Source: Thermoanaerobaculia bacterium
GTDB taxonomy: Bacteria; Acidobacteriota; Thermoanaerobaculia; Gp7-AA8
NCBI GenBank assembly: GCA_036399015.1
Contig: DASWNW010000086.1
Location: 722-64,721 of the forward strand
DNA: 64,000 bases
Reading direction: 5' to 3'
Every line of letters starts with the position of its first letter. The stretch's first letter is position 1. The notes below the pieces were generated by a model, which had not been told where the DNA came from, searched no databases, and saw only the letters and a program-made list of their open reading frames with translations. Positions 4,271-59,688 of the stretch are shown here, piece by piece. The translations under genes and the position numbers were made by a program.

Positions 4271-4460
4271 CGCAGGGCGGTGTCACGGCCTACCAGTTTG
4301 CCGCGCTTCATCTGCTGGATCAGGGCGATCCGGCCTCTGCGGTCGTGGCAGCGGAGTTGGGCGTCGCGCGTGAAAAGAAGACGTTCCCGAATTCCGTCGG
4401 ATCGAAGATCGTAGGCATTGCAGACAAGGCCTGGAAGGCGCTCGAGGGACGGCGATGACG

Positions 4461-4522
4461 CCGGTTCCTCGGGTTCCTCGGCGTAACCGCACCCGAGGAA
4501 CTCCGAGGAACCGAGGAACCCC
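4461..4522. repeat. tandem-unit hairpin repeat, unit GTTCCTCGG / CCGAGGAAC (family shared with 22179-22218 and 27474-27563)
   Basis: ggttcctcgggttcctcgg..loop..ccgaggaactccgaggaaccgaggaacc between convergent genes. Confidence 0.7.
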
Positions 4523-4528
4523 GCGCCC

Positions 4529-5986
4529 TCACTCCTTGTCGATCGTGATGTTCCCGTTCGCGTTCGTCAGGTCGAGCTGGCAACCGCCGCGGCCGATGGT
4601 GCCGACGAGCGTGTTCTCATTCACGCCGTTCGTCGTCACCGGGAGGGCGCTCTTGATCGACCCGAACGAGGTGCGGGCGTTGACGCTGTAGCTCGAGCCT
4701 GCCGGCACCGACACCTTGATCGGGCTGAAGTTCGTGCGCAGCGCGACGGGGCGGCAGCCGGTGCCGCGGAGGCCGGCGACGGAGATGGCGCCGTTCGAGT
4801 TCTCGACCCGCACCGGGCCGCCGGCGCCGTCGATCTTCACCCAGCCGAAGCTCGAGCGGACCGTCGCGGCATTGCCCATCTCGTTCAGCGTCACGTTGCC
4901 GTTCTGGTTGTCGACCGTCGCCGCGCCGCGCACCCGGTCCGCCTGAACGTCGGCGAAGCGGGTGGTGGCGGTGAACGCGCCGGTGATGTCGCTGACCTTG
5001 ATGCTGCCGTTGCTGTTCTTCACGGTCGCCGCGCCACTGACCTTGCTCAGCGTCACGGCGCCGAAGGCCGTCTCGACGACCGCGGCGCCGGAGATGTTCG
5101 TCGCCTCGACCCCCGAGTTGCTGCCGTCGACGGTGAGGGTGCCGCCGACCGTGTTCACGACCACGGAGCCGAACGAGTTCCGCACCGTCGCCGCGCCGCC
5201 GACGTTCGCCAGTTCGACGCGGGCGTTGCTGGTGGTGACGTCGGCGCCGCCGCGCACCGTCGACGCCTTGACGTTCCCGAACGTGCTGACGGCCTTGAGG
5301 CCTCCGCCGATGTCGACCACGTCGATCGAGCCGTTCGCGTTCGTGATCGTGGCGCCGCGTCCGACGTTCGACACCTCCACCGACCCGAAGCGATTCGTGA
5401 CGGTGAGGGCGCCGTCGACTTTCTCGACGTCGATCGAGCCGTTCTGGTTGTGGACCGTGAGGTCGCCGCGGTTCGTCTTGACGTCGATCGAGCCGAAGGA
5501 GTTCGAGAGGGTGTGCGCGCCCCGTCCGTCGAAGAAGGAGATCGAGCCCTGCTTGTTCTCGATCGTGCTGGACGCGCCGAGGCCGCGCGCGTCGATGTTG
5601 CCGAAGCTGTTCCGCGCCGTCACCGGCGCGTTCGCCGGCACCGTCACCGTCATGTCGACGGAGTACGACACGTGCCCGAACATCTTCTTCACCTCGGGGA
5701 TCGTCGTCGTGATGCTCACGCCCGACGGGCTCTCGGTCGTGGTGATGCGGATGGCCTTGCCGATCTCGTCGTCGGACGAGCGGATGACCGCACGCACCTG
5801 CACCTGCGAGCTGTCGTGCGTGCGGAGGGTGAGGTCGCCCGCCGCGTGCTGAATCGTGACGCGTCCGCCGCTGAACGTGGCGTTCTTGCCGTAGCGGGTT
5901 TCGAAGCGCGACTCGTCGTCCTCTGCCAGGAGAGGCAGGGCGAGGAGCAGCGAGAGTGCGAGGAGCAAATTACGGAGTCGAAGCAT
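4529..5986 (-). CDS. secreted DUF4097-type repeat protein (putative adhesin), downstream of anti-sigma factor
   Basis: 485 aa; signal peptide; ~20 tandem N-x-F/NG-S-I-x-V beta-strand repeats typical of DUF4097; operon position after ECF sigma/anti-sigma. Confidence 0.6.
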   Translation of the reverse strand: MLRLRNLLLALSLLLALPLLAEDDESRFETRYGKNATFSGGRVTIQHAAGDLTLRTHDSSQVQVRAVIRSSDDEIGKAIRITTTESPSGVSITTTIPEVKKMFGHVSYSVDMTVTVPANAPVTARNSFGNIDARGLGASSTIENKQGSISFFDGRGAHTLSNSFGSIDVKTNRGDLTVHNQNGSIDVEKVDGALTVTNRFGSVEVSNVGRGATITNANGSIDVVDIGGGLKAVSTFGNVKASTVRGGADVTTSNARVELANVGGAATVRNSFGSVVVNTVGGTLTVDGSNSGVEATNISGAAVVETAFGAVTLSKVSGAATVKNSNGSIKVSDITGAFTATTRFADVQADRVRGAATVDNQNGNVTLNEMGNAATVRSSFGWVKIDGAGGPVRVENSNGAISVAGLRGTGCRPVALRTNFSPIKVSVPAGSSYSVNARTSFGSIKSALPVTTNGVNENTLVGTIGRGGCQLDLTNANGNITIDKE

Positions 5987-6602
5987 GGGAGTCCTCCCGC
6001 AGCACGTCGTGCAAGGTGATCTGCTTTTCGGTGTACATGGCCAGCAGTTGCTTGCGGAGGTGCGCGTTCTGTCGGTTCTGTTCGATGTTCGCCTCGCATT
6101 CGGCGATGGCGTCGTCGAGCAGCATCAGTTTTTCCTTGTACGAGACGATGAGCGGTGATTCGGCGGCGTCGAGCTTGTCGTCGGTGAGTCGCTCGAGTTT
6201 CTCGATGGCGGCGACGTGCTCCCGCTCCGCCCGTTCGACGTCGTCGAGGGCGGTGATGCGCAGGATGTCGCTGTCGAACGCTGCCTCGTGCGTCTGCACG
6301 CGCAGCGCGTAGAACATGGTGCCGCCGAGGGCAAACGTGAGGACCGCGGCGGCGGCGAACGAACGGAAGCGGCGAACGGGACGGCGGCGCTGCTCGTCGC
6401 GGATCGAGCGCTCGATCCGGGGCCAGAGCATGTCGTTCGTCCAGGACATCTGCATCGAGCGGGCGGTTGCGGAGATGTCGTTCCACGACGCCAGCTTTTC
6501 GGCGCAGGCAGGGCAGTCCTGCGCGTGGCGCTCCGCCGTCTCCATGGCGAGCGGCGAGGCGTCGAAAAGAAGGTCGTCGAGCTGACTGCACGTGACGTTC
6601 AT
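5970..6602 (-). CDS. anti-sigma factor, zf-HC2 type, single-pass membrane
   Basis: ORF 5970..6656, start taken at Met19 (6602) overlapping sigma stop (ATGA); H..C..C zinc motif HAQDCPACAEK then TM helix. Confidence 0.6.
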   Translation of the reverse strand: MNVTCSQLDDLLFDASPLAMETAERHAQDCPACAEKLASWNDISATARSMQMSWTNDMLWPRIERSIRDEQRRRPVRRFRSFAAAAVLTFALGGTMFYALRVQTHEAAFDSDILRITALDDVERAEREHVAAIEKLERLTDDKLDAAESPLIVSYKEKLMLLDDAIAECEANIEQNRQNAHLRKQLLAMYTEKQITLHDVLREDSHASTP

Positions 6603-7174
6603 TGGGATGTCTTCCACTTTTCCTGAAGCTCTTTCTTGGTGGCGAAGAGGATCCACTTGGAGTTCCCCTCGCTGATGCCGAGGACCTGGCCGATCTCGGC
6701 GTGACTGAGTCCCTCGATCTCGAAGAGGGTGAAAACGCTGCGGCGCTGCTCGGGCAGCTCGTCGAGGAGCCGGCGCAGGGCGATGCGCTTCATGTCGTCG
6801 ACGCTGGCGCTGCTGCGCTCCAGCTCGTCGTCGATCGGCGTCTCCTCCACGCGCCGCTTGCGCTTACGGAGGATGTCGTAGCAGGTGTTGACGAGGATCC
6901 GGAACACCCAGGTGGCGAAGGAGGCCTCGCCGGTGAAGGTGGTGGCGGAGCGGTGCACCTTGAGGAAGGTCTCCTGCACCGCATCCTCGGCGTCGCTGCT
7001 GTTGCCGAGGTGGTTCCAGGCGATGCTCTTCATCCGGTCGCCGAAGCGGCGGTAGATCTCCTCGAACGCCCGCGAGTCGCCCGCCACGCAGGCCGACGCC
7101 AGCCGCTGGTCTTCGGCGTCCGGCGCGGCGGTCGCGGCGAGGTGCAGCATCGGTGTCATGGCGGCGTGGAGCAT
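6599..7174 (-). CDS. RNA polymerase ECF sigma factor (sigma-70 regions 2 and 4)
   Basis: 191 aa; AFEEIYRRF..., region 2 and region 4 HTH (LSHAEIGQVLGISEGNSK). Confidence 0.8.
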   Translation of the reverse strand: MLHAAMTPMLHLAATAAPDAEDQRLASACVAGDSRAFEEIYRRFGDRMKSIAWNHLGNSSDAEDAVQETFLKVHRSATTFTGEASFATWVFRILVNTCYDILRKRKRRVEETPIDDELERSSASVDDMKRIALRRLLDELPEQRRSVFTLFEIEGLSHAEIGQVLGISEGNSKWILFATKKELQEKWKTSQ

Positions 7175-7218
7175 TGTTCTGCCCGGATAGACGCGGGGGG
7201 AAGGGAAACGTTAGAAAG

Positions 7219-7350
7219 GGTTGCTGGTTGCTGGTTGCTCGTGTCGGTTGTCAGTTGCTCGTTGTCAGTTGTCGGTTGTCGGTTGTCCGTGGAGTGTCGC
7301 CCGGGCGGGAACCCACGTCGACAACTGACAACCGACAACCGACAACACAA
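7219..7350. repeat. composite tandem-unit hairpin: 3x GTTGCTG units then long GTTGTCG/CGACAAC palindrome (stem ~27 bp)
   Basis: ggttgctggttgctggttgctc..gttgtcagttgtcggttgtcggttgtcc-loop-gacaactgacaaccgacaaccgacaac between fpg 3' end and ECF sigma start. Confidence 0.75.
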
Positions 7351-8232
7351 CTAAAGCTCATCGATCGACTTCGGCCAATCCCCCTTCAGCAGGCGCGATA
7401 AAGCACGGTCTGCCAGCAACTTGCCTCCGGTCTGGCAGCGCGCGCAGTAGTTCGTCTCGTTCTCCGCGTGGACGATGCGCTGGACGGGGGTGCCGCAGAC
7501 GGGGCAGGGGAGGTTGTAGCGGCCGTGGACGGCCATCTCCGGGCGGAAGGCGGTGACCTTCTCGGGGAAGCGGCTGCCGGTCTCGGTGCCGAGGCGGTCG
7601 ATCCACTCGAGGAGGACCTCCCGGATCGCCGCGTAGAGACGCGCCAGCTCGTCGGCGGAGAGGTTCGTCGTCATCTGCACCGGCGACAGCCGCGCCCGGT
7701 GGAGGATCTCGTCCGAGTAGGCGTTCCCGATGCCGCTGAAGACGTGCGGATCGGTGAGGGTGCGCTTGAGGGTGTGGCGCTCGCGGGTCAGGGCGGCCCG
7801 GAACTCGTCCAGCGACATCTCCAGTGGCTCGATGCCGCCCGGATCGTGGCCCCGGAGCGCCTCCGCTCCCCGCACGATATGGATGGCCGCGCGCCGCTTC
7901 GACCCGGCCTCGGTCAGGACGAGCGTGCCGTTCTCGAAGTCGAGCGCCGCCAGGCCGAGCTTGCCCGGCACCTTCGCCCCCGCCGCCAACCAGCGAAAGC
8001 GGCCGGCGATCATGAGGTGGATGACGACGAAGAGGTCGTCCTCGAGACCGAACACGATGCGCTTGCCGAGGCGGCGCAGGGAGAGCACCCGCTTCCCGAT
8101 CAAATCGGCCGGAGCGGGGTCGACCGTACGGAGCACGAACGGGTTGGCGAGCCGGAGCTTTTCGACCGTACGGCCGAGCACGCGCTCCTGCAGAGCCCGT
8201 AAGTAGATCTCCACGTCGGGAAGTTCAGGCAC
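7351..8232 (-). CDS. mutM: formamidopyrimidine-DNA glycosylase (Fpg/MutM)
   Basis: ORF 7351..8265; start set at GTG 8232 to give canonical N-terminus (M)PELPDVE; C-terminal zinc finger CPVCGTPV..CARCQ. Confidence 0.85.
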   Translation of the reverse strand: MPELPDVEIYLRALQERVLGRTVEKLRLANPFVLRTVDPAPADLIGKRVLSLRRLGKRIVFGLEDDLFVVIHLMIAGRFRWLAAGAKVPGKLGLAALDFENGTLVLTEAGSKRRAAIHIVRGAEALRGHDPGGIEPLEMSLDEFRAALTRERHTLKRTLTDPHVFSGIGNAYSDEILHRARLSPVQMTTNLSADELARLYAAIREVLLEWIDRLGTETGSRFPEKVTAFRPEMAVHGRYNLPCPVCGTPVQRIVHAENETNYCARCQTGGKLLADRALSRLLKGDWPKSIDEL

Positions 8233-8255
8233 GATCCGGCCATTATCTTCGGTAC

Positions 8256-8846
8256 ATGCGCACATTGAAGGTACTGGTTGCCGGCTGGCTGGCCGGAGGC
8301 GCGTTCATCGTGCTGCTGTCGCTGTGGCCGAAAACGGCGGCCGTGGCGGTCGCCGATGGGCCGGTTGCCGCTTCCCCGTTGCCGGCGGCCAGCGGCTCTG
8401 CCGTCCACATGCTGGTTCCCGTCTCCGGCATCGCCCCCTCGGCGCTGCGCGACAACTTCACGCAGCCTCGCGGCAACGGGCGCCTGCACCACGCCATCGA
8501 CATCATGGCGCCGCATGGAACTCCGGTCGTGGCGGCGGTCTCGGGGACGATCCGCAAGCTCTTCACCAGCAAGGCGGGCGGGCTGACGATCTACCAGTTC
8601 GACGAGGCGGAGGAGCGCGTCTACTACTACGCGCACCTGCAGCGCTACGCGAACGGGATCGCCGAGGGGATGGTCGTCGAGCAGGGGACGGTGATCGGGT
8701 ACGTCGGCGTCACCGGCAACTCGGCCAAGGACGCGCCGCATCTCCACTTCTCCGTCGAGGTGCTGGGGCCGACGAAGGAGTGGTGGAAGGGGACGCCGTT
8801 GAATCCCTACCCGCTGCTCACCGCACGCGCTTCAGCGCTTCCGTGA
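8256..8846 (+). CDS. M23 family (LytM-type) metallopeptidase, secreted
   Basis: HHAIDI..., HLHF motifs (HxxxD / HxH) and signal/TM at N-terminus. Confidence 0.75.
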   Translation: MRTLKVLVAGWLAGGAFIVLLSLWPKTAAVAVADGPVAASPLPAASGSAVHMLVPVSGIAPSALRDNFTQPRGNGRLHHAIDIMAPHGTPVVAAVSGTIRKLFTSKAGGLTIYQFDEAEERVYYYAHLQRYANGIAEGMVVEQGTVIGYVGVTGNSAKDAPHLHFSVEVLGPTKEWWKGTPLNPYPLLTARASALP

Positions 8847-16858: not shown

Positions 16859-16882
16859 GGCCGCCCTCCGGGCGGCCTTTTT
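16859..16882 (+). terminator. rho-independent terminator of rpsA
   Basis: GGCCGCCC-TCC-GGGCGGCC followed by TTTTTG, 5 nt after stop. Confidence 0.8.
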
Positions 16883-16953
16883 GTTGCTAGTTGCTGGTTG
16901 CTGGTGCCTTCGGCCGCCACATCACAAGCAACCAGCAACCAGTAACCAGCAAC
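16883..16953. repeat. GTTGCTG-unit tandem hairpin repeat
   Basis: gttgctagttgctggttgctggtg-loop-caaccagcaaccagtaaccagcaac. Confidence 0.75.
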
Positions 16954-18599: not shown

Positions 18600-19552
18600 G
18601 AGCGGTTGGGATCGTAGCCGGTGTTGCCGCCGCCGGTGCCGCCCGTGCCGCCGGTGCCACCGGTACCGCTGGTGCCGCCGGTTCCACGGTAGTCGGCGCC
18701 GCCCGTACCACCCGTACCGCGATAGTCCGTGCCGCCCGTGCCGGCCGTGCCGCCGGTGCCGCGATAGTCGGTGCCGCGGTCGTAGCCCGGTCCGCGGTCA
18801 AAGTCCGCGCCGGCGACCGTGGTCGTCGTCTCATCCTTCCCGCGATTCACCGCCGCGTAGATCAGGCCTGCGCCGAGGGCGAGGGCCGCTACGCCGGCAG
18901 CAACCTTGGCCGGGTTCTCACGCGTGTACGACGTCACCTTGCTGCTCGAGCCCTTGAGGTAGTCGCGCGCCGTGTTGAGGTACTCGTCGACGTCGACGTT
19001 CTCGAACTGCGAGCGGAGGCTGCCGAGCAGGCCTTCGATGCCGCCGGCCTTGCTGAGCGACTGTCCGCAGTGCGTGCAGAAGTGGTCTTCCCCGGTGTCG
19101 GACGAGGAGCCGGTCGAGCCGGTGCCCGCCGTGCTGCCGCCGCCGTCGCCGACACCACCGCTGCCGCTGCCGCCACCGAGGCCGCTGCCAGCGAGGCCGC
19201 TGCTGCCGGTGCTGCCACCGAGGCCACTGCCACCGAGACCGCTGCTGCCGGTGCTGCCTCCGAGACCGCTGCCGCCGCTGCTGCCGCTGCTGCCGGAGCC
19301 GGCGCCACCGGAGCCATACGAGCCGCTGCCGCTGCCGCTGCCCGGGTTGAGCGAGCCGCCGGAGCTGCTGCCGCCGCCCGTTCCCGAGCTGCTGCCGCCG
19401 CTGCCGGTGGTCATGCCGCCGCCCGACGACATGCCGGTGCCGGTGCCGCCGGAGCCGTAGCCGGCCCCGGTGGACGTGCCGCCCGAGCCGCTGTTCCCTG
19501 TGGTTCCGCCGCTGATGCCGGAGATGGGGTCGTTAGGATCGTTCTGAGCCAT
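18596..19552 (-). CDS. Gly/Ser/Thr-rich low-complexity protein with DUF883 (ElaB/YqjD)-like C-terminal membrane anchor and DYRGTGGT repeats
   Basis: Start set at Met16 (19552) preceded by GGAGG RBS; ..YTRENPAKVAAGVAALALGAGLIYAAVNRG resembles ElaB/YqjD tail anchor. Confidence 0.5.
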   Translation of the reverse strand: MAQNDPNDPISGISGGTTGNSGSGGTSTGAGYGSGGTGTGMSSGGGMTTGSGGSSSGTGGGSSSGGSLNPGSGSGSGSYGSGGAGSGSSGSSGGSGLGGSTGSSGLGGSGLGGSTGSSGLAGSGLGGGSGSGGVGDGGGSTAGTGSTGSSSDTGEDHFCTHCGQSLSKAGGIEGLLGSLRSQFENVDVDEYLNTARDYLKGSSSKVTSYTRENPAKVAAGVAALALGAGLIYAAVNRGKDETTTTVAGADFDRGPGYDRGTDYRGTGGTAGTGGTDYRGTGGTGGADYRGTGGTSGTGGTGGTGGTGGGNTGYDPNRS

Positions 19553-20066: not shown

Positions 20067-20175
20067 GCAGTCGCAGAGTCGCAGAGTCGCAAAGTCGCAG
20101 AGGAGGGAGCGCAGCCTTTGAGCCTCTGACACTCTGAGACTCCGCGACTTTGAGACTCTGCGACTCTGCGACTAC
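20067..20175. repeat. tandem-unit hairpin repeat, unit GCAGAGTC / GACTCTGC, ~45-bp stem, in divergent promoter region
   Basis: cagtcgcagagtcgcagagtcgcaaagtcgcagagg-loop-cctctgacactctgagactccgcgactttgagactctgcgactctgcgact. Confidence 0.75.
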
Positions 20176-22176: not shown

Positions 22177-22178
22177 AA

Positions 22179-22218
22179 CCCGAGGAACTCCGAGGAACTC
22201 CGAGGAACCCGAGGAACC
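22179..22218. repeat. four direct CCGAGGAAC units (one arm only)
   Basis: cccgaggaactccgaggaactccgaggaacccgaggaacccc. Confidence 0.65.
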
Positions 22219-22219
22219 C

Positions 22220-22684
22220 CTACGCCGCCGGCGGTGACGCCAGGTCAACTGCCAGCGGCTGCGCCGCGCGCTCCACGGCCGGCTTCCGGAACCCCCACAC
22301 CGCGAGCGCGGTGCCAGCGATCGCGGCGACGGAGAGGCTCTGCAGCAGGAACGCGACCACCGCTTCCGCGAGCGACGTCCCGGTCGTGCCGGCGCCGGCG
22401 ATCGGGGTGAAGCGGCTCGCGCCTGTCATCGCGCCGAGGAGGCAGGCGGCCCAGTTGGCCCACGCCGCATAGACCCACGCCCACATCATCATCTTCGCGG
22501 AGCGCGGCGCGAGCGCGAACGACGCAGCGAGCGCGCCGAGGGCGATCAGCACCAGGCCGCCGGTGATGGCGACGATGTGCGCGGCGAGGCCGAGCCGCGG
22601 GTTCGTGTACAGCGGCATCCCGAACCCGGTGAACAGGCCCACCAGGATCAGCACGAATCCCAACTGGATCTGGAGACGATTCAT
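22220..22684 (-). CDS. hypothetical membrane protein (4 TM)
   Basis: 154 aa with four hydrophobic helices. Confidence 0.45.
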   Translation of the reverse strand: MNRLQIQLGFVLILVGLFTGFGMPLYTNPRLGLAAHIVAITGGLVLIALGALAASFALAPRSAKMMMWAWVYAAWANWAACLLGAMTGASRFTPIAGAGTTGTSLAEAVVAFLLQSLSVAAIAGTALAVWGFRKPAVERAAQPLAVDLASPPAA

Positions 22685-27465: not shown

Positions 27466-27473
27466 GCGAGGCG

Positions 27474-27563
27474 GTTCCTCGGAGTTCCTCGGCAGTTCCT
27501 CGGGTTCCTCAGCCGACCTCCCCCGAGGAACCCCGAGGAACCCCGAGGAACCCCGAGGAACCC
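27474..27563. repeat. GTTCCTCGG x4 / CCGAGGAAC x4 hairpin repeat after tonB
   Basis: ggttcctcggagttcctcggcagttcctcgggttcctc-loop-ccccgaggaa x4. Confidence 0.75.
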
Positions 27564-29322: not shown

Positions 29323-29414
29323 GAATGAAGAATTTCGAATGAAGAATGAAGAGGTTGTTCACGGCCGCCGGCTGGACTTTATTCTTCATTCTTCATTCGA
29401 ACCTCTTCATTCGA
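29323..29414. repeat. tandem-unit hairpin repeat, unit GAATGAAGA / TCTTCATTC
   Basis: gaatgaagaatttcgaatgaagaatgaagag-loop-ttcttcattcttcattcgaacctcttcattcg. Confidence 0.75.
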
Positions 29415-29424
29415 TTGGAGCCAC

Positions 29425-32160
29425 ATGCGACGAGCCGTCACCCTCGCGATCCTCCTCCTCTCCCTCTCCCTCCACGCCCTCCCTCCAAACGTCGAAAAGA
29501 TCGACTCCTTCCGCGGCATCGACCAGTACCGCCTCAAGTCCAACGACATGACCATCCTGCTGGTGCCGAACCACGCCAGCCCGGTCGTCACGTTCATGGT
29601 GGTCTACCACGTCGGCTCGCGGAACGAGGCGCCGGGGAACACCGGCTCGGCGCACCTGCTCGAGCACATGATCTTCAACAAGTCGACCGAGAACTTCGGC
29701 CGCGCCAAGGGCCACAAGACGTTTCAGGAAGTGCTCTATGAGGCGGGCGCCGACTATTCGTCGACGAACATGACCACCTGGAACGACCGGATGAACGGCT
29801 ACTCCACGCTGCCGTCCGACAAGCTGGAGCTGGCCATGAAGATCGAGGCCGACCGGCTCGGCCGCGGCCTCATCCTCGACAGCGAGCGGCAGTCGGAGAT
29901 GTCGGTCGTCCGCAACGAGTACGAGATCGGCGAGAACGACCCGTCGAACGCGCTCTGGAAGAACGTCATCGCCACGGCCATCCAGGCGCACCCCTATCAC
30001 TGGGACACGATCGGCTACCGCTCCGACATCGAGGGCGTGACGACCGAGAAGCTGCGCGAGCACTACAAGACGTTCTTCTGGCCCGACAACGCGGAGGCCA
30101 TCCTGGTCGGCGACTTCGACACGGAGCAGGCGCTGGCGATGTTCGACCGCGAGTTCGGCGCCTTCAAGAAGAGCGACAAGCCGATCCCGCAGGTGATCAC
30201 CGTCGAGCCGCCGCAGGAAGGGGAGCGCCGCGTCGTCGTGCAGCGCCCCGGCACGGTCGGCATCGTGCAGATCGGCTACATGCGTCCCGGCGCGCTCGAT
30301 CCCGACTTCATCGTCCTCGACGTGCTCAGCTCCATCCTCGGCGACGGCGTGAACTCGCGCCTCTACCGTGCGCTCGTCGAGAAGCAGCTCGCCACCAGCG
30401 TCAGCTCGCACAACTTCACGCTCCGCGATCCCTACCCGCTGATGATCGAGGCGAACCTCGCCGCCGGAAAGGCCCACACCGACGTGGAGCAGGGCATCAA
30501 GGCCGCGGTCGCCGAGGTCGTCGCCAAAGGGGTGACGGACGAAGAGGTGAAACGCGCGCAGCAGCAGATCGAGGTCGCCGTCATCCGCAGCCGCGACGGC
30601 ACCTTCAACTACGCCTCCAACCTCGGCGAGTCGGTGGCGTCGACGAACTGGAAGTGGTTCCTGACCTACGTCGACAACGTCAAGGCCGTGACCGCCGCGG
30701 ATGTGAAGCGCGTCGCGTCGGCCTACCTGACGCCGGAGCGGGCGACCGTCGGCTGGTTCGTCCCGGGGACCGCCGTGAAGCCCGTCCCCTCTGGAGCGAC
30801 GGCCTCTCAGGCCGTCGCCGCGAAGACGGAGAGCCGGGCTGAGAGCCCGGCCGTGCAGAGAGAGACCAAACCCGCCGCCGGCTCCTTCGCCCAGCGCACC
30901 ACCCGCCGCGTCCTCCCGAACGGCATCATCGTCGACGTCGTCGAGAACCACGCCGTCCCCACCGTCGCCATCCGCGCCCTCGCGTTCGCGGGCGACATCG
31001 CCGCGCCTGCCGGGAAGCCGGCCGTCCCCGCGCTCACCGCGAAGATGCTCGCCCGCGGTACGAAGTCGCGCACGAAGGAGCAGATCGGCAAGCTGCTCGA
31101 CGACGTCGGCGCGACCCGCTCCTACGCGACTAACCTCACCGAGGCGCTGGTGAGCGCGAACGGGATGTCGCGCGACCTGCCGCTGCTGCTGGAAGTCCTC
31201 GGCGACGAATTGAAGAACCCCGCCTTCACGGCCGAGGAGCTGGAGAAGGCGAAGAACGAGCTCGAGAACGACTACCTGCGCGCCGACGATCAGACCAGCG
31301 CCCGCGCGATGCAGCGCCTCAGCCAGCTCGTCTACCGTGAGAACCATCCGTACTACGCCTTCGGCCGGGCGAAGCTCGTCGAGAGCGCGAAAGCGGCGAC
31401 CGCGGACGACCTCCGCGGCTTCCATCGCGCCCGCTACGCCGGCGCGGGGCTGATCGTGGCCATCGTCGGCGACGTCGACACCGCGAAGACGCTGGCGCTG
31501 GTCGAGAAGCAGCTCGGCGGCCTGCCGAAAGGGGAGCGGATCTCGTTCGCGCAGCTCCCACGCACCACTCCCGCCGCGAAGGGCGTGCGCGAGGCGGTGA
31601 CGATGCCCGGCAAGGCGAACATGAACATCGTCATGGGCACCGCCTCCGGTCTCCGCCGCAACGATCCCGACTACGAGGCCGCGCTCATCGCCAACGCCGC
31701 GCTCGGGCAGACGGCGCTCTCGTCACGCATCGGCCGCCGCGTGCGCGACACCGAGGGCTTGTCGTACAACCTCGCGTCGCGCTTCTGGAACAGCGACGTG
31801 CTCGACGGCGTCTGGTGGGTGAACGTCAACGTCGCGCCGCAGAACCTCGAGAAGGCGATGAAGTCGACCTACGAGGAGATCGTGAAGTTCGGCCGCGAGG
31901 GGGTCACCGACGAAGAGGTGGCGGCGCAGAAGAGCTTCTTCGCCGGCAACTACAAGGTCGGCCTCGGCTCGAACGCCGGCGTCGCCACGGCCCTCGTGAC
32001 GGCGGAGAAGTTCGGCTTCGGCCCCCGCTACCTCGACGAGTTTCCCGCGCGCATCAACGCCGTGACGAAGGACCAGGTGAACGCCGCCATGCGCAAGTAC
32101 CTCTTCCCCGACCGGCTGCACGTGATCGTGGCGGGAGATCTGGAGAAGGTGCCTGATTAG
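29425..32160 (+). CDS. secreted M16 (pitrilysin/insulinase) family zinc peptidase, double-module (911 aa), carrying in-frame palindromic-element insertion in the inter-module linker
   Basis: Signal peptide; inverted zinc motif HLLEHMIF (HxxEH); second M16-like half; linker residues ..PSGATASQAVAAKTESRAESPAVQRETKP.. are encoded by two copies of the palindromic element. Confidence 0.85.
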   Translation: MRRAVTLAILLLSLSLHALPPNVEKIDSFRGIDQYRLKSNDMTILLVPNHASPVVTFMVVYHVGSRNEAPGNTGSAHLLEHMIFNKSTENFGRAKGHKTFQEVLYEAGADYSSTNMTTWNDRMNGYSTLPSDKLELAMKIEADRLGRGLILDSERQSEMSVVRNEYEIGENDPSNALWKNVIATAIQAHPYHWDTIGYRSDIEGVTTEKLREHYKTFFWPDNAEAILVGDFDTEQALAMFDREFGAFKKSDKPIPQVITVEPPQEGERRVVVQRPGTVGIVQIGYMRPGALDPDFIVLDVLSSILGDGVNSRLYRALVEKQLATSVSSHNFTLRDPYPLMIEANLAAGKAHTDVEQGIKAAVAEVVAKGVTDEEVKRAQQQIEVAVIRSRDGTFNYASNLGESVASTNWKWFLTYVDNVKAVTAADVKRVASAYLTPERATVGWFVPGTAVKPVPSGATASQAVAAKTESRAESPAVQRETKPAAGSFAQRTTRRVLPNGIIVDVVENHAVPTVAIRALAFAGDIAAPAGKPAVPALTAKMLARGTKSRTKEQIGKLLDDVGATRSYATNLTEALVSANGMSRDLPLLLEVLGDELKNPAFTAEELEKAKNELENDYLRADDQTSARAMQRLSQLVYRENHPYYAFGRAKLVESAKAATADDLRGFHRARYAGAGLIVAIVGDVDTAKTLALVEKQLGGLPKGERISFAQLPRTTPAAKGVREAVTMPGKANMNIVMGTASGLRRNDPDYEAALIANAALGQTALSSRIGRRVRDTEGLSYNLASRFWNSDVLDGVWWVNVNVAPQNLEKAMKSTYEEIVKFGREGVTDEEVAAQKSFFAGNYKVGLGSNAGVATALVTAEKFGFGPRYLDEFPARINAVTKDQVNAAMRKYLFPDRLHVIVAGDLEKVPD
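30788..30868. repeat. two inverted copies of small palindromic element inside M16 peptidase CDS (in frame)
   Basis: ctctggagcgacggcctctcaggccgtcgcc ... gagccgggctgagagcccggccgtgcagagagag. Confidence 0.7.
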
Positions 32161-32240
32161 TTACTGGTTGCTGGTTGCTGGTTCCTTGTGAGTCGTTGAG
32201 CGCGGGCAAACCAGCAACCAGCAACTAGCAACCAGCAACG
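32161..32240. repeat. GTTGCTG-unit tandem hairpin repeat between convergent genes; right arm overlaps last codons of methyltransferase
   Basis: ttactggttgctggttgctggttcc-loop-aaaccagcaaccagcaactagcaaccagcaac. Confidence 0.75.
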
Positions 32241-32734
32241 CGCCTCATCACCAGTTCTCCGATCTCCCCCTCCCGCGAATGCAGCAACTCCCATCCCTCG
32301 AAGAACGACCCCAGCTCTCCCGGGCTGGCTGCGAACCGCCCCTTCATCCGGGCGGCGGTGACGAGCAGTCCGCCCGGGCGGAGCACCCGCTTCGCTTCCG
32401 CGAAGAGCGGGCGGTGCAGGTAATAGAGGATGAGTACGAGGTCGAACGACTCGTCCTCGAAGGGGAGCGGCGCGCCGGTCTCGAGGTCGAGCACGCGCGC
32501 GTCGACCGCCGGTTCGTGCTCCCGCAGCAGGCGGATCGCCTCCTCGGCGCCGTCGATCGCCACCACCTCCCACCCTCCGCGCGCGAGCCAGATGGCGTTC
32601 CGGCCGGCGCCGCAGGCGAGGTCGAGTGCGCGTCCGGGGGCGACGCCGCGCAGCGCATCGACGAGGAGTTCCGCCGGGCGGTCGTCGATGTCGTCGCGCG
32701 TGCGGTAGCGCTGGTTCCACTCGTCGAGACTCAC
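32225..32734 (-). CDS. class I SAM-dependent methyltransferase, TehB-like (tellurite/selenite methyltransferase family)
   Basis: 169 aa; motif I VLDLACGAGRNAIWLARGG; small TehB-like size; C-terminal VAGC-stop encoded by the GTTGCTG repeat. Confidence 0.7.
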   Translation of the reverse strand: MSLDEWNQRYRTRDDIDDRPAELLVDALRGVAPGRALDLACGAGRNAIWLARGGWEVVAIDGAEEAIRLLREHEPAVDARVLDLETGAPLPFEDESFDLVLILYYLHRPLFAEAKRVLRPGGLLVTAARMKGRFAASPGELGSFFEGWELLHSREGEIGELVMRRVAGC

Positions 32735-34523: not shown

Positions 34524-34540
34524 TACGCGCCTACGGCGCG

Positions 34541-34621
34541 GTTGCTGGTTGCTGGTTGCTCGTGAACTCCCAGCCACACGGCGCCATAGCAACCAGCAAC
34601 CAGTAACCAGTAACCAGCAAC
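34541..34621. repeat. GTTGCTG-unit tandem hairpin repeat inside efflux operon (between adaptor and ATPase genes)
   Basis: gttgctggttgctggttgctcgtg-loop-caaccagcaaccagtaaccagtaaccagcaac. Confidence 0.75.
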
Positions 34622-36632: not shown

Positions 36633-36722
36633 GTTGCTGGTTGCTGGTGGCTGGTTCCTTGTGAGGTGTTCCTCCACGCACCCACTGCGTCACGAGCAAC
36701 AAGCAACGAGCAACCAGCAACC
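36633..36722. repeat. GTTGCTG-unit tandem hairpin repeat between the two permease genes
   Basis: gttgctggttgctggtggctggttcc-loop-gagcaacaagcaacgagcaaccagcaacc. Confidence 0.75.
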
Positions 36723-53848: not shown

Positions 53849-53925
53849 TGCCGGCGCCCGGCAAATCGTAAAGTCACACGGCTCGCCTCGCGCCTCGCGA
53901 GGCGGGCCAACTGCCCCCACCTCAC

Positions 53926-54186
53926 GATGGATATGGGGTCATGTCCATCGCCACGGCCGCGACGATGTGAGCGCGTCCGCCCGTACTCGCGAGGGACATG
54001 GGGTGATGTCCCTCGCCGCTGCCGCGACGACGTGAGTGCGTCCGTCCGTGCTCGCGAGGGACATGGGGTGATATCCATCGCGGCTGTCGCGACGATCTGC
54101 GTGACGCCGCCGCGGCGCAAATCGAGGTCGAGTGACCTCGAGCGCGACGTCCGTGGGACTGACGATGGACATCCCCCCATGTCCCT
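53926..54186. repeat. array of four 24-bp palindromes (GAGGGACAT-N6-ATGTCCCTC type) within ~64-bp tandem units upstream of serine-hydrolase gene
   Basis: P1 53926, P2 53990, P3 54056, P4 54163; inter-palindrome segments also mutually similar (gccgcgacgatgtgagcgcgtccg..ctcgcgag). Confidence 0.7.
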
Positions 54187-54278
54187 CGCGGCCGCGGCGA
54201 CGATGTAAAAGAACGTCACGGTCGCTCGCGCATCGCAGCCGCCCCGTCCCGCCAACGACGCGTGCGACAATCGCGTCC

Positions 54279-58981: not shown

Positions 58982-59070
58982 GTTGTCGGTTGTCGGTTCT
59001 CAGTTGTCCGGGGCTCCTCGTCACCCCAACACCGCAGACAACCGACAACCGACAACCGACAACCGACAAC
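58982..59070. repeat. GTTGTCG / CGACAAC tandem-unit hairpin repeat in divergent promoter region; followed by direct repeat cgcaggccgcgcc x2
   Basis: gttgtcggttgtcggttctcagttgtcc-loop-gacaaccgacaaccgacaaccgacaaccgacaacc. Confidence 0.75.
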
Positions 59071-59121
59071 CGCGGCCGCAGGCCGCGCCCGCAGGCCGCG
59101 CCGCCTGCTACCATCTTCCCG

Positions 59122-59688
59122 ATGCCCGACATCACGCGGCTTCTCGCCGGCTGGCGCGCCGGTGACCGCTCCGCCTTCGAGCAGCTCACGCCGCTCGTGT
59201 ACGCCGAGCTGCGGCACATCGCCGCGCGTCAGCTCGGGCGCGAGGAGGCGGGCCACACGCTGCAGCCGACCGCATTGGTCAACGAGGCCTTCATCCGCCT
59301 CTGCGGCAGCACGCCGGCCGCCTGGCAGGACCGGTCGCACTTTTTCGCCGTCTGCGCGCAGGTGATGCGGCACATCCTCACCGATCACGCCCGGGCGCGG
59401 CTGCGCGTGAAGCGGGGGGCGGGGGCGGTGCACGTCCCGCTCGACGCGGCGGCCACGGTGATCCAGCAGGAGCCGTCGCTCGACCACGCCGCGCTCGACG
59501 ACGCGCTGCGCGCGCTCGAGACGCTCGATCCCCGCAAGGGGCGCATCGTCGAGCTCCGCTACTTCGCCGGCCTCGGCATCGAGGAGACGGCGGAGCTGCT
59601 GAACGTCTCCGCGATGACGGTGCGCCGGGAGTGGACGCGCGCGAAGGCCTGGCTCTATCGCGAGCTGGCCGAGGGAGGCAGCCGTTAA
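59122..59688 (+). CDS. ECF sigma factor of the Ser/Thr-kinase-associated type (TIGR02999-like)
   Basis: Start Met45 of ORF 58990..59688; ..ITRLLAGWRAGDRSAFEQL.., region 4 HTH; followed by cognate kinase gene. Confidence 0.8.
   Translation: MPDITRLLAGWRAGDRSAFEQLTPLVYAELRHIAARQLGREEAGHTLQPTALVNEAFIRLCGSTPAAWQDRSHFFAVCAQVMRHILTDHARARLRVKRGAGAVHVPLDAAATVIQQEPSLDHAALDDALRALETLDPRKGRIVELRYFAGLGIEETAELLNVSAMTVRREWTRAKAWLYRELAEGGSR

Follow-up and report, generated by a model that had tools for sequence, protein, structure and literature searches.

When a heptanucleotide is found repeated head to tail, and then repeated again as its complement, in front of each of two separate sigma factor genes of the extracytoplasmic function (ECF) type, it is natural to ask whether such a structure belongs to these genes or is something more general that merely happens to lie there. 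This is the situation in the stretch of Thermoanaerobaculia DNA analysed here (64,000 nucleotides of contig DASWNW010000086.1, referred to below as the window), where two long hairpins built from GTTGTCG/CGACAAC units, locus 1 at 7219-7351 and locus 2 at 58982-59072, had been picked out in a first-pass annotation, which suggested both an association with ECF sigma promoters and a diversification of the units in situ rather than copying of a fixed sequence. The answer reached here, held with moderate confidence, is that both loci belong, as its GTTGTCG representatives, to a class of palindromic elements built of short tandem repeats that persist at gene junctions and probably change by slippage and template switching, possibly forming in RNA a hairpin like that of the repetitive extragenic palindromes (REPs); their pairing with sigma factor genes is a matter of chance.

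Both hairpins proved to be real. The inverted arms extend over 27 nt at locus 1 (7261-7287 with 7320-7346, 93% complementary) and over 32 nt at locus 2 (58982-59013 with 59032-59063, 88% complementary), and for a period of 7 the program Tandem Repeats Finder (TRF) gives 6.6 and 4.0 copies at the former and 3.9 and 5.1 copies at the latter. If up to two mismatches are allowed, GTTGTCGGTTGTC occurs 16 times in the window (1.3 occurrences would be expected), 14 of the 16 being within these two loci, and the predicted RNA folds of both strands at both loci lie between -45.7 and -70.7 kcal/mol, with z-scores of -4.6 to -6.8 relative to shuffled controls. The chimeric construction described for locus 1 was likewise borne out, in that three perfect GGTTGCT units, belonging to the GTTGCTG family, abut the GTTGTCG-type left arm; this arm is itself a mosaic, containing besides GTTGTCG one GTTGCTC, one CGTGTCG and two GTTGTCA. 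The two unit types GTTGCTG and GTTGTCG actually differ at two positions, however, and not at the single nucleotide originally stated. Because the left arm comprises approximately 10 units, about twice the approximately 4.5 of the right arm, some six units of locus 1 are left without a partner. Those at 7219-7239 are unpaired in the minus-strand RNA fold, and on a transcript in the sense of fpg and the sigma gene they constitute a C/A-rich single-stranded tail behind the hairpin. At the opposite end, the C-rich arm runs one base into the fpg stop codon (plus-strand CTA at 7351-7353, TAG on the minus strand), and on the minus strand the G of this TAG doubles as the opening base of the first unit. 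Locus 1 thus begins at the fpg stop codon, and therefore belongs to the 3' end of fpg as much as to the 5' end of the sigma factor gene.

Further evidence comes from this same junction in related bacteria, of which six versions (including that of the window) were reached through the sigma protein and four homologues. The sigma protein is 100% identical to one that NCBI lists for a metagenome-assembled Thermoanaerobaculia genome. Counting units in the G-rich and then the C-rich arm, in the direction from fpg to sigma, the window has approximately 4.5 + 10, of GTTGTCG together with the unpaired GTTGCTG, around a loop core CGCCCGGGCGACACTCC. At 97.5% DNA identity to the window, L004 has no element at all, its spacer being GAGCTCTAACG; at 85% identity, L190 has 4 + 4 units of GTTGTCG, no GTTGCTG extension, and the same loop core as the window; at 79%, L191 has 4 + 2 units of GGTGTCG/GGTATCA, again with the loop core of the window; at 78%, L192 has only a small unrelated hairpin; and at 74%, L193 has 6 + 3 units of GTTGGCG/GTTGGTG with a different, long loop. 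A tandem-unit hairpin is present, then, in four of the six lineages, with a loop core common to three of them, while the GTTGCTG extension that makes the locus chimeric is confined to the lineage of the window. The element has persisted at one junction across lineages that are 74-85% identical in DNA, and the units of both arms have been replaced together. Diversification in situ, as had been proposed, is thereby substantiated, since both unit and copy number differ at the orthologous fpg-sigma junction, as they do also between macA and macB (see below), and the predicted variation in copy number is seen directly in the 4 + 4 units of L190 against the approximately 4.5 + 10 of the window, with L128 and L130 providing a further case. 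The simplest history compatible with these sequences would be that the element is old at this junction, has had the units of both its arms replaced and has drifted in unit number, and that L004 lost it by deletion across the base of the stem, at a microhomology of 1-2 nt. A promoter-like motif, CTAACGT-N16/17-CGTCTAT, is kept in all six spacers, whether the element is present or absent; in L004 the fpg stop codon TAA falls within the -35 part of it.

This last observation bears on the suggestion that the elements are regulatory sites of ECF sigma factor genes. The basis for the suggestion is plain enough: both GTTGTCG copies in the window do lie 5' of such genes, as had been reported, and in three lineages the fpg-sigma hairpin ends just 4-7 nt ahead of the conserved ECF-type -35 motif. 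However, a scan of one genome per species, in which three perfect GTTGTCG units were required, yielded at least 119 loci, in Acidobacteriota (mostly Thermoanaerobaculia), Bacteroidota, Chloroflexota, Poribacteria, Gammaproteobacteria and others, and when these were searched with both sigma proteins (using tblastn), any ECF-like gene at all was found within 8 kb of only 4 of the 119 and adjacent to none of them. Within the window, a third ECF gene carries no element, and the other nine elements flank unrelated genes. Because none of these 119 loci adjoins an ECF gene, and because the third such gene of the window is bare, the pairing of these hairpins with sigma genes is attributed to chance. 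Given in addition that the promoter motif is intact in strains that have no element, and that an identical architecture flanks peptidase, ABC transporter and other genes, a regulatory role tied to ECF sigma factors is very improbable.

In all, eleven elements were counted in the window, ten of them tandem-unit hairpins and the other a single array, based on five unit types, all of them intergenic and with unrelated neighbouring genes (Table 1). Nine of the eleven long inverted repeats in the window are of the tandem-unit type, filling spacers that would otherwise be short, and to judge from the window roughly one in five of the intergenic spacers of this Thermoanaerobaculia genome is occupied by an element. 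The plan is the same throughout, namely an array of G-rich units of 7 (sometimes 8-10) bases, a loop of arbitrary sequence and a complementary array; the outer ends read GTTG...CAAC, the stems are of 27-35 bp and the loops of 18-35 nt, and in most copies a T run is absent. Rfam covariance models, applied at gathering score, gave no match anywhere in the window. The idea of a conserved loop for the GTTGTCG family as a whole was considered and rejected, as its loops range from 2 to 80 nt and are unrelated except among close relatives.

Table 1. Positions of the elements, their parts and the adjoining features in the window.
Feature	Position	Strand	Unit family	Remarks
Locus 1, GGTTGCT units x3	7219..7239		GTTGCTG	No complementary partner; TRF 3.0 copies, 100%
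Locus 1, G-rich arm	7240..7287		GTTGTCG	CGTGTCG GTTGTCA GTTGCTC GTTGTCA GTTGTCG GTTGTCG GTTGTC
Locus 1, loop	7288..7319			GC-rich core GTGTCGCCCGGGCGGGAAC at 7294-7312
Locus 1, C-rich arm	7320..7351		GTTGTCG	GACAAC TGACAAC CGACAAC CGACAAC ACAAC
ECF sigma factor gene	6599..7174	-		TIGR02937 (NCBIfam), E = 1.8e-30; neighbour, outside element
ECF-type promoter-like motif CTAAC-N16-CGTCTAT	7187..7214	-		Between element and sigma start codon; putative, read from sequence
fpg (formamidopyrimidine DNA glycosylase)	7351..8265	-		TIGR00577 (NCBIfam), Pfam gene calls; stop abuts element
Locus 2, G-rich arm	58982..59008		GTTGTCG	GTTGTCG GTTGTCG GTTCTCA GTTGTC
Locus 2, loop	59009..59036			Unrelated to locus 1 loop except for inner unit-like boundary
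Locus 2, C-rich arm	59037..59072		GTTGTCG	5.1 GACAACC units, TRF 100% matches
ECF sigma factor gene	59122..59688	+		TIGR02999; Ser/Thr kinase gene next downstream
Hairpin	4454..4530		GTTCCTCGG	Between convergent genes
Hairpin	16883..16953		GTTGCTG	Directly behind canonical GC hairpin with T5 tract
Hairpin	20069..20173		AGTCGCAG	8-base unit; divergent spacer; JGI and Logan contigs terminate inside
Single array (CCGAGGAAC)4	22177..22219		GTTCCTCGG	No partner arm; minus strand reads GTTCCTCGG right behind stop of gene 22220-22684(-)
Hairpin	27470..27563		GTTCCTCGG(N)	Between TonB_C gene and SWIB gene
Hairpin	29323..29412		GAATGAA	Between acetyltransferase gene and M16 peptidase gene
Hairpin	32160..32239		GTTGCTG	Between convergent M16 peptidase and methyltransferase genes
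Hairpin	34540..34621		GTTGCTG	macA-macB spacer
Hairpin	36633..36722		GTTGCTG	ftsX-ftsX junction, with copy of macB upstream tail GCGAGCGAAGCGAGC

Some of these elements intrude on the ends of the genes beside them. At 32160 the stop codon of the M16 peptidase gene (TAG, 32158-32160) abuts and overlaps the left arm, while that of the methyltransferase gene (CTA, 32225-32227) lies inside the right arm; as this latter open reading frame, 32225-32734(-), ends at a CTAG variant unit in the right arm (32209-32245), the element has taken the place of the gene's final few codons, by comparison with L130 and L165. Two elements sit within a single transporter operon, macA-macB-ftsX-ftsX. The GC hairpin at 16860-16882 that precedes one of the elements (GCCGCCCTCCGGGCGGCCTTTTT, followed by a T5 tract) is a canonical terminator, missed by the consensus terminator scan, and the stretch that separates the TIGR02999 sigma gene from the locus 2 hairpin holds 2.5 tandem copies of a 13-nt unit, CCGCGCCCGCAGG (59070-59104). 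Two further repetitive regions of the window are of other kinds. At 53921-54197 there is a separate family with a 65-nt unit present 2.7 times, an inverted copy at 54152-54197 and a GGGACATGGGGTGATGTCCC hairpin in each unit, which is resembled by CTGGGACATCGATGTCCCAG repeats at 21-212 in L131; and at 18629-19460 dense G+C-rich repeats with periods of 9, 18, 27 and 42 nt overlap a 318-residue gene that has no Pfam hit and that probably encodes a repetitive Gly-rich protein.

There is also a practical side to the elements. JGI contigs (Ga0334963_000134 and Ga0334963_000015) and Logan contigs of SRR10954988 end inside arrays, at 20069-20173, at 22177-22219 and at 7290, and because independent assemblies do so it can be said that the elements fragment short-read assemblies; look-ups with exact proteins, made in search of strain variation, returned only the same strain (1 mismatch in 22 kb) or contigs ending inside arrays, and the one diverged strain, L004, came from a look-up with the sigma protein. 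Since they both break short-read assemblies and shift gene ends, the elements have a bearing on how good metagenome-assembled genomes are and on how they are annotated.

Turnover of the same kind can be followed at other junctions, for which 53 related loci around the M16 peptidase gene were fetched. The macA-macB spacer contains a hairpin in eight of nine genomes, and these eight fold at -43 to -74 kcal/mol, yet the units differ widely: GTTGCTG in the window, L126 and L132; GTTGTCG/GTTGCCG in L127; TGGTTGG/TGATTGG/TAGTTGG in L128 and L130; GGGTGTC in L156; and in L141 a lone GTTGCTG unit fused to another palindrome, with no element in L165. Unit numbers are unequal, and differ even between L128 and L130, which are closely related. 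For the two junctions together there are 11 orthologues, and in 10 of these the dominant unit of the left arm either is the reverse complement of the dominant unit of the right arm or is found among the right arm's top three; in the remaining one, L130, the relation is reversed, the commonest unit of the right arm being the third commonest of the left. The spacer upstream of the M16 gene contains in different relatives GAATGAA, GGATGAA, GAGCAAT, AGGGCCG or no element, and that downstream GTTGCTG, GTTGTCG, AGGCGTC, an unrelated palindrome or nothing. Non-tandem palindromes occur at the convergent M16 junction in L125 (10902-10979), L129 (10128-10233) and L128 (4899-5006), and behind the M16 gene in L132; examples in relatives include TTTGGAGTGCGG...CCGCACTCCAAA, GTCATCCTGAGC...GAAGGATCC and a REPIN-like doublet (that is, resembling a REP doublet forming a hairpin) of GTAGGGCCGGCTCTCCAGCCGGCCC between A5 and T5.

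The contrast that had been drawn between diversification and the copying of a fixed sequence therefore holds in its first half only: diversification is observed, but copying is not excluded by it, because whole elements have been copied between junctions. In L141, one compound GAATGAA/GAACGCA element is present in two copies that include the loop ends and the termini. The ftsX-ftsX junction, which measures 1-5 nt in six relatives, holds in the window a GTTGCTG element together with the tail GCGAGCGAAGCGAGC that is normally found ahead of macB, the element at 36633 being copied from the macA-macB spacer along with this tail. In L127 both junctions carry a GTTGTCG element. The loop core of locus 1, shared as noted with the orthologous elements of L190 and L191, recurs in two elements at other junctions in L156, so that three different junctions carry it. 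Short duplications of gene ends are also to be seen beside some elements, as at 9860-9890 in L141 (GATGAAAGA/GATGAAAAG), where an acetyltransferase is lengthened by four codons, and behind the M16 stop codon in L128 (GACTAGCAG/GACTAGCAG); these may hint at arrays being seeded from local sequence.

Two regularities of a different sort emerged from a census of inverted repeats covering the window and 172 further loci (L006-L177), in which 164 long inverted repeats were counted, the arms being periodic in 67. The 5' arm was richer in G than in C in 65 of these 67 (the corresponding figure for ordinary inverted repeats was 51:36), and still in 34 of 36 once loci containing GTTGTC were left out; all 24 GTTGTCG arrays that have a partner arm have it on the 3' side, none on the 5'. 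A palindrome reads identically on both strands, and the arm order must therefore be intrinsic to the element, independent of which strand is read. The other regularity concerns gene borders. Single arrays have the 5' end of their G-strand a median of 14 nt from the gene on that side, as against 114 nt on the other side, and an array starts within 20 nt behind a same-strand stop codon for 18 of 49 G-strand arrays, compared with 3 of 53 in the opposite orientation; many other arrays appear by eye to lie 0-7 nt from an opposite-strand start codon, a range that start assignment biases downward. The intergenic context itself is unremarkable, with 40 co-directional, 4 convergent and 5 divergent spacers.

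Two possible causes of the arm order were tried and set aside. Self-folding of the G-strand was rejected because, on either strand, the nearest-neighbour DNA energy of a single arm is close to zero for most units, and a tendency to avoid start codons beside the downstream gene (25 cases for, 4 against, 7 ties) is a weaker predictor than the excess of G over C (34 of 36). Avoidance of Rho loading on C-rich RNA, effects of R-loops or pausing, and a polar origin are further candidate causes. It is conceivable, if at distinctly long odds, that arm order and border fit are both products of a polar process, largely independent of sequence, by which G-rich arrays of short units grow away from gene boundaries, hairpins then being two such arrays head to head; a dedicated repeat-adding activity is one form that it might take, and a mode of slippage related to the footprint of a polymerase another. 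If true, it would amount to an undescribed bacterial mechanism for generating repeats, spread across Acidobacteriota, Bacteroidota, Xanthomonas, cyanobacteria and Beggiatoaceae.

On the interpretation that is favoured here, of elements that persist at junctions and change by slippage and template switching, replication slippage would alter the number of units and carry a variant unit through one arm, complementarity would then be restored by a switch of template from arm to arm (quasipalindrome correction), and microhomology-mediated slippage across the base of the hairpin would on occasion delete the element altogether. When transcribed, the element would form a hairpin of -45 to -70 kcal/mol where the upstream cistron ends, and at 7219 such a hairpin would insulate the ECF-type promoter of the sigma gene from transcription of fpg. 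By analogy with REPs and bacterial interspersed mosaic elements (BIMEs), it may stand in the way of 3' exonucleases and of read-through, although this is the weakest step of the scheme. Several points count against this interpretation. Mismatches in the stems show no G.U bias in the sense transcript (28 G.U against 35 A.C, for co-directional spacers), and for this reason selection at the level of RNA is not supported; a T tract behind the stem is missing in most copies; and the close relatives L004 and L165 manage without an element at the respective junctions, the empty site in L004 being known from a single short Logan contig. The orthologue comparison, moreover, covers one of the two GTTGTCG hairpins, locus 1, and slippage with template switching leaves by itself both the 5' position of the G-rich arm and the placement at gene borders unexplained.

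The likeliest alternative is that these are non-autonomous mobile elements, of the REPIN type or of the MITE type (miniature inverted-repeat transposable elements), moved by an enzyme encoded elsewhere (for instance a HUH transposase like the REP-associated tyrosine transposases, RAYTs) for which the units would be binding repeats. This is thought unlikely rather than negligible. It would account readily for dispersed copies that share non-repeat parts, such as the pair in L141 and the loop core found at three junctions, and for the arrival of the element at 36633 in a junction of just 1-5 nt in six relatives, and it would be in keeping with the defined GTTG...CAAC outer ends, the clean presence or absence of elements and the preference of each genome for a particular unit family. 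However, comparison of filled sites with the empty or short spacers of L004, L130 and the ftsX-ftsX junction reveals no target-site duplication, on which ground assignment to the MITEs was rejected; a possible exception is the element at 13728 in L156, which appears by eye to be flanked by an imperfect gene-end duplication, GGAAACGCTGTAG/GGACACTTGTAA. Nor do the loops show any relation across genomes, or the called genes around the elements include a transposase, while several phyla have identical units, and the stepwise change of units at orthologous sites fits descent better than repeated insertion. Somewhat less probable again is the proposal that the hairpin is itself a selected RNA structure, either a terminator or insulator that needs no U tract, or a device that joins the upstream stop to the downstream start and so keeps insertion neutral or enforces translational coupling. 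The tight spacing of the stems, which start 0-29 nt after a stop codon (median 5-6 nt) and end 6-45 nt before the next start, would suit such a role, as would the unrelated palindromes that other relatives have at one convergent junction, and the retention of a hairpin at a junction where both arms have been wholly replaced does look compensatory. Template switching in DNA, though, can keep arms complementary without any selection; the sense transcript is not favoured by any G.U asymmetry; and the element is dispensable in L004, L165, L125 and L156 at the respective junctions.

The least probable of the explanations considered, and one that is hard to credit, is that G-rich units are added in polar fashion to 3' ends, for instance by a healing of double-strand breaks like that which forms telomeres, so that a hairpin would represent two arrays joined head to head. 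Some features are just what this would predict, since the arm order in 65 of the 67 periodic hairpins is that of a head-to-head telomere fusion, the arms are unequal in length, loops at the junctions are unrelated, target-site duplication is absent, and the 5' end of the G-strand of single arrays faces the nearer gene. Against this, the coexistence of several unit types in one genome would call for several templates, units change gradually at orthologous sites, random breaks do not predict a close fit to gene borders, and to our knowledge no candidate enzyme exists for such an addition.

It remains to place the elements among known systems, of which some could be dismissed quite simply. A rho-independent terminator has a GC-rich stem of 5-14 bp and a loop of 3-8 nt followed by a U tract, and was rejected in view of stems of 27-35 bp, loops of 18-35 nt, few T runs and a silent consensus scan. 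The attC site of an integron, which directly follows the open reading frame of its cassette, has the order RYYYAAC ... GTTRRRY; here the order is reversed, GTTG... coming first and ...CAAC at the end, and RRRY is not matched by positions 4-7. A CRISPR reading was rejected on anatomy. As to mechanism, correction of quasipalindromes by template switching and deletion of palindromes between short direct repeats are both established mutational mechanisms of E. coli; they would explain arms that change together and losses such as that in L004, although they are known as hotspots of mutation in laboratory reporters, are not known to maintain a natural family of elements, and are inferred to act here.

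REPs, BIMEs and REPINs are abundant intergenic palindromes of Enterobacteria and Pseudomonas, often found in operons right behind stop codons, that protect the upstream mRNA and can attenuate read-through, REPINs being inverted doublets that spread within a genome. The present elements are like REPs in forming strong transcript hairpins at operon junctions, but unlike them in having arms made of tandem units that vary in number and sequence. REPs are described as having a fixed sequence of 20-40 bp that is tagged with GTAG or CGTC, and a RAYT gene that goes with them (PMC3733652, PMC3116915). In the elements examined there was no conserved palindrome of 20-40 bp and no GTAG or CGTC tag, while no RAYT was found in the available sequence (64-76 kb of the genome) and no transposase domain among the called genes.

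What the elements do have are the features of heptameric tandem repeats, namely three or more 7-nt units head to tail, intergenic position (11 sets in 64 kb), copy-number steps of unit length between relatives, a G-rich strand that is sense after stop codons, and convergent pairs. A literature search on the literal repeat strings gave nothing relevant. Heptamer repeats that are over-represented in the genomes of many bacteria have been on record since 1990-2007, their function and origin unestablished. The TAACTGA repeats of Beggiatoaceae, Cyanobacteria and Bacteroidetes are situated a short way ahead of start codons and show 7-nt indels between strains (MacGregor 2015, PMC4679880); their A/C-rich strand is sense, a few bases from the starts, and some are reversed directly behind stop codons (PMC4679880). 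The reverse complement of TAACTGA, when rotated, is GTTATCA, one base from the GTTGTCA found here, and GTTATC is mixed into several GTTGTCG arrays; the difference is that one inverted case was noted among 170 TAACTGA sets, whereas the present elements are mostly inverted and hairpin-forming. The cyanobacterial short tandemly repeated repetitive (STRR) heptamers share with the TAACTGA repeats the likeness of being short heptameric tandem repeats, and a 2022 preprint on Nostoc still offers no more than speculation on the role of heptamer repeats.

A close parallel is with the GGGAATC heptamers of Xanthomonas, present in approximately 186 intergenic sets per genome with 70-75 convergent pairs in each of two genomes (Rehm et al. 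2015, PMC4692102), a study that also covers the GGGGA(C/T)T heptamer repeats of Nostoc. In Xanthomonas it is the G-rich strand that is in sense in the first 50 bp behind stop codons and in antisense ahead of starts, and position is conserved between species while length varies; G-quadruplexes were proposed, and no function was found (PMC4692102). Inverted pairs with the G-rich copy first, the strand rule at stop codons, conserved position and variable length are all common to those repeats and the present ones. By contrast with the Xanthomonas and Nostoc repeats, the units here are without G runs, so that no quadruplex is possible, several families coexist per genome, the host is acidobacterial, and units are replaced at orthologous junctions, which is undescribed for the Xanthomonas repeats. 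The kind of element is thus already known and unexplained, and those described here are a new family of it in a new host. As no quadruplex can form from their units, the polarity rule is not to be put down to quadruplexes; the rule of a G-rich arm coming first, formerly seen only for units capable of forming quadruplexes, now extends to units that are not. Together, the rewriting of both arms at a fixed junction and a fixed polarity at stops and starts across phyla help this extension to narrow the range of possible explanations.

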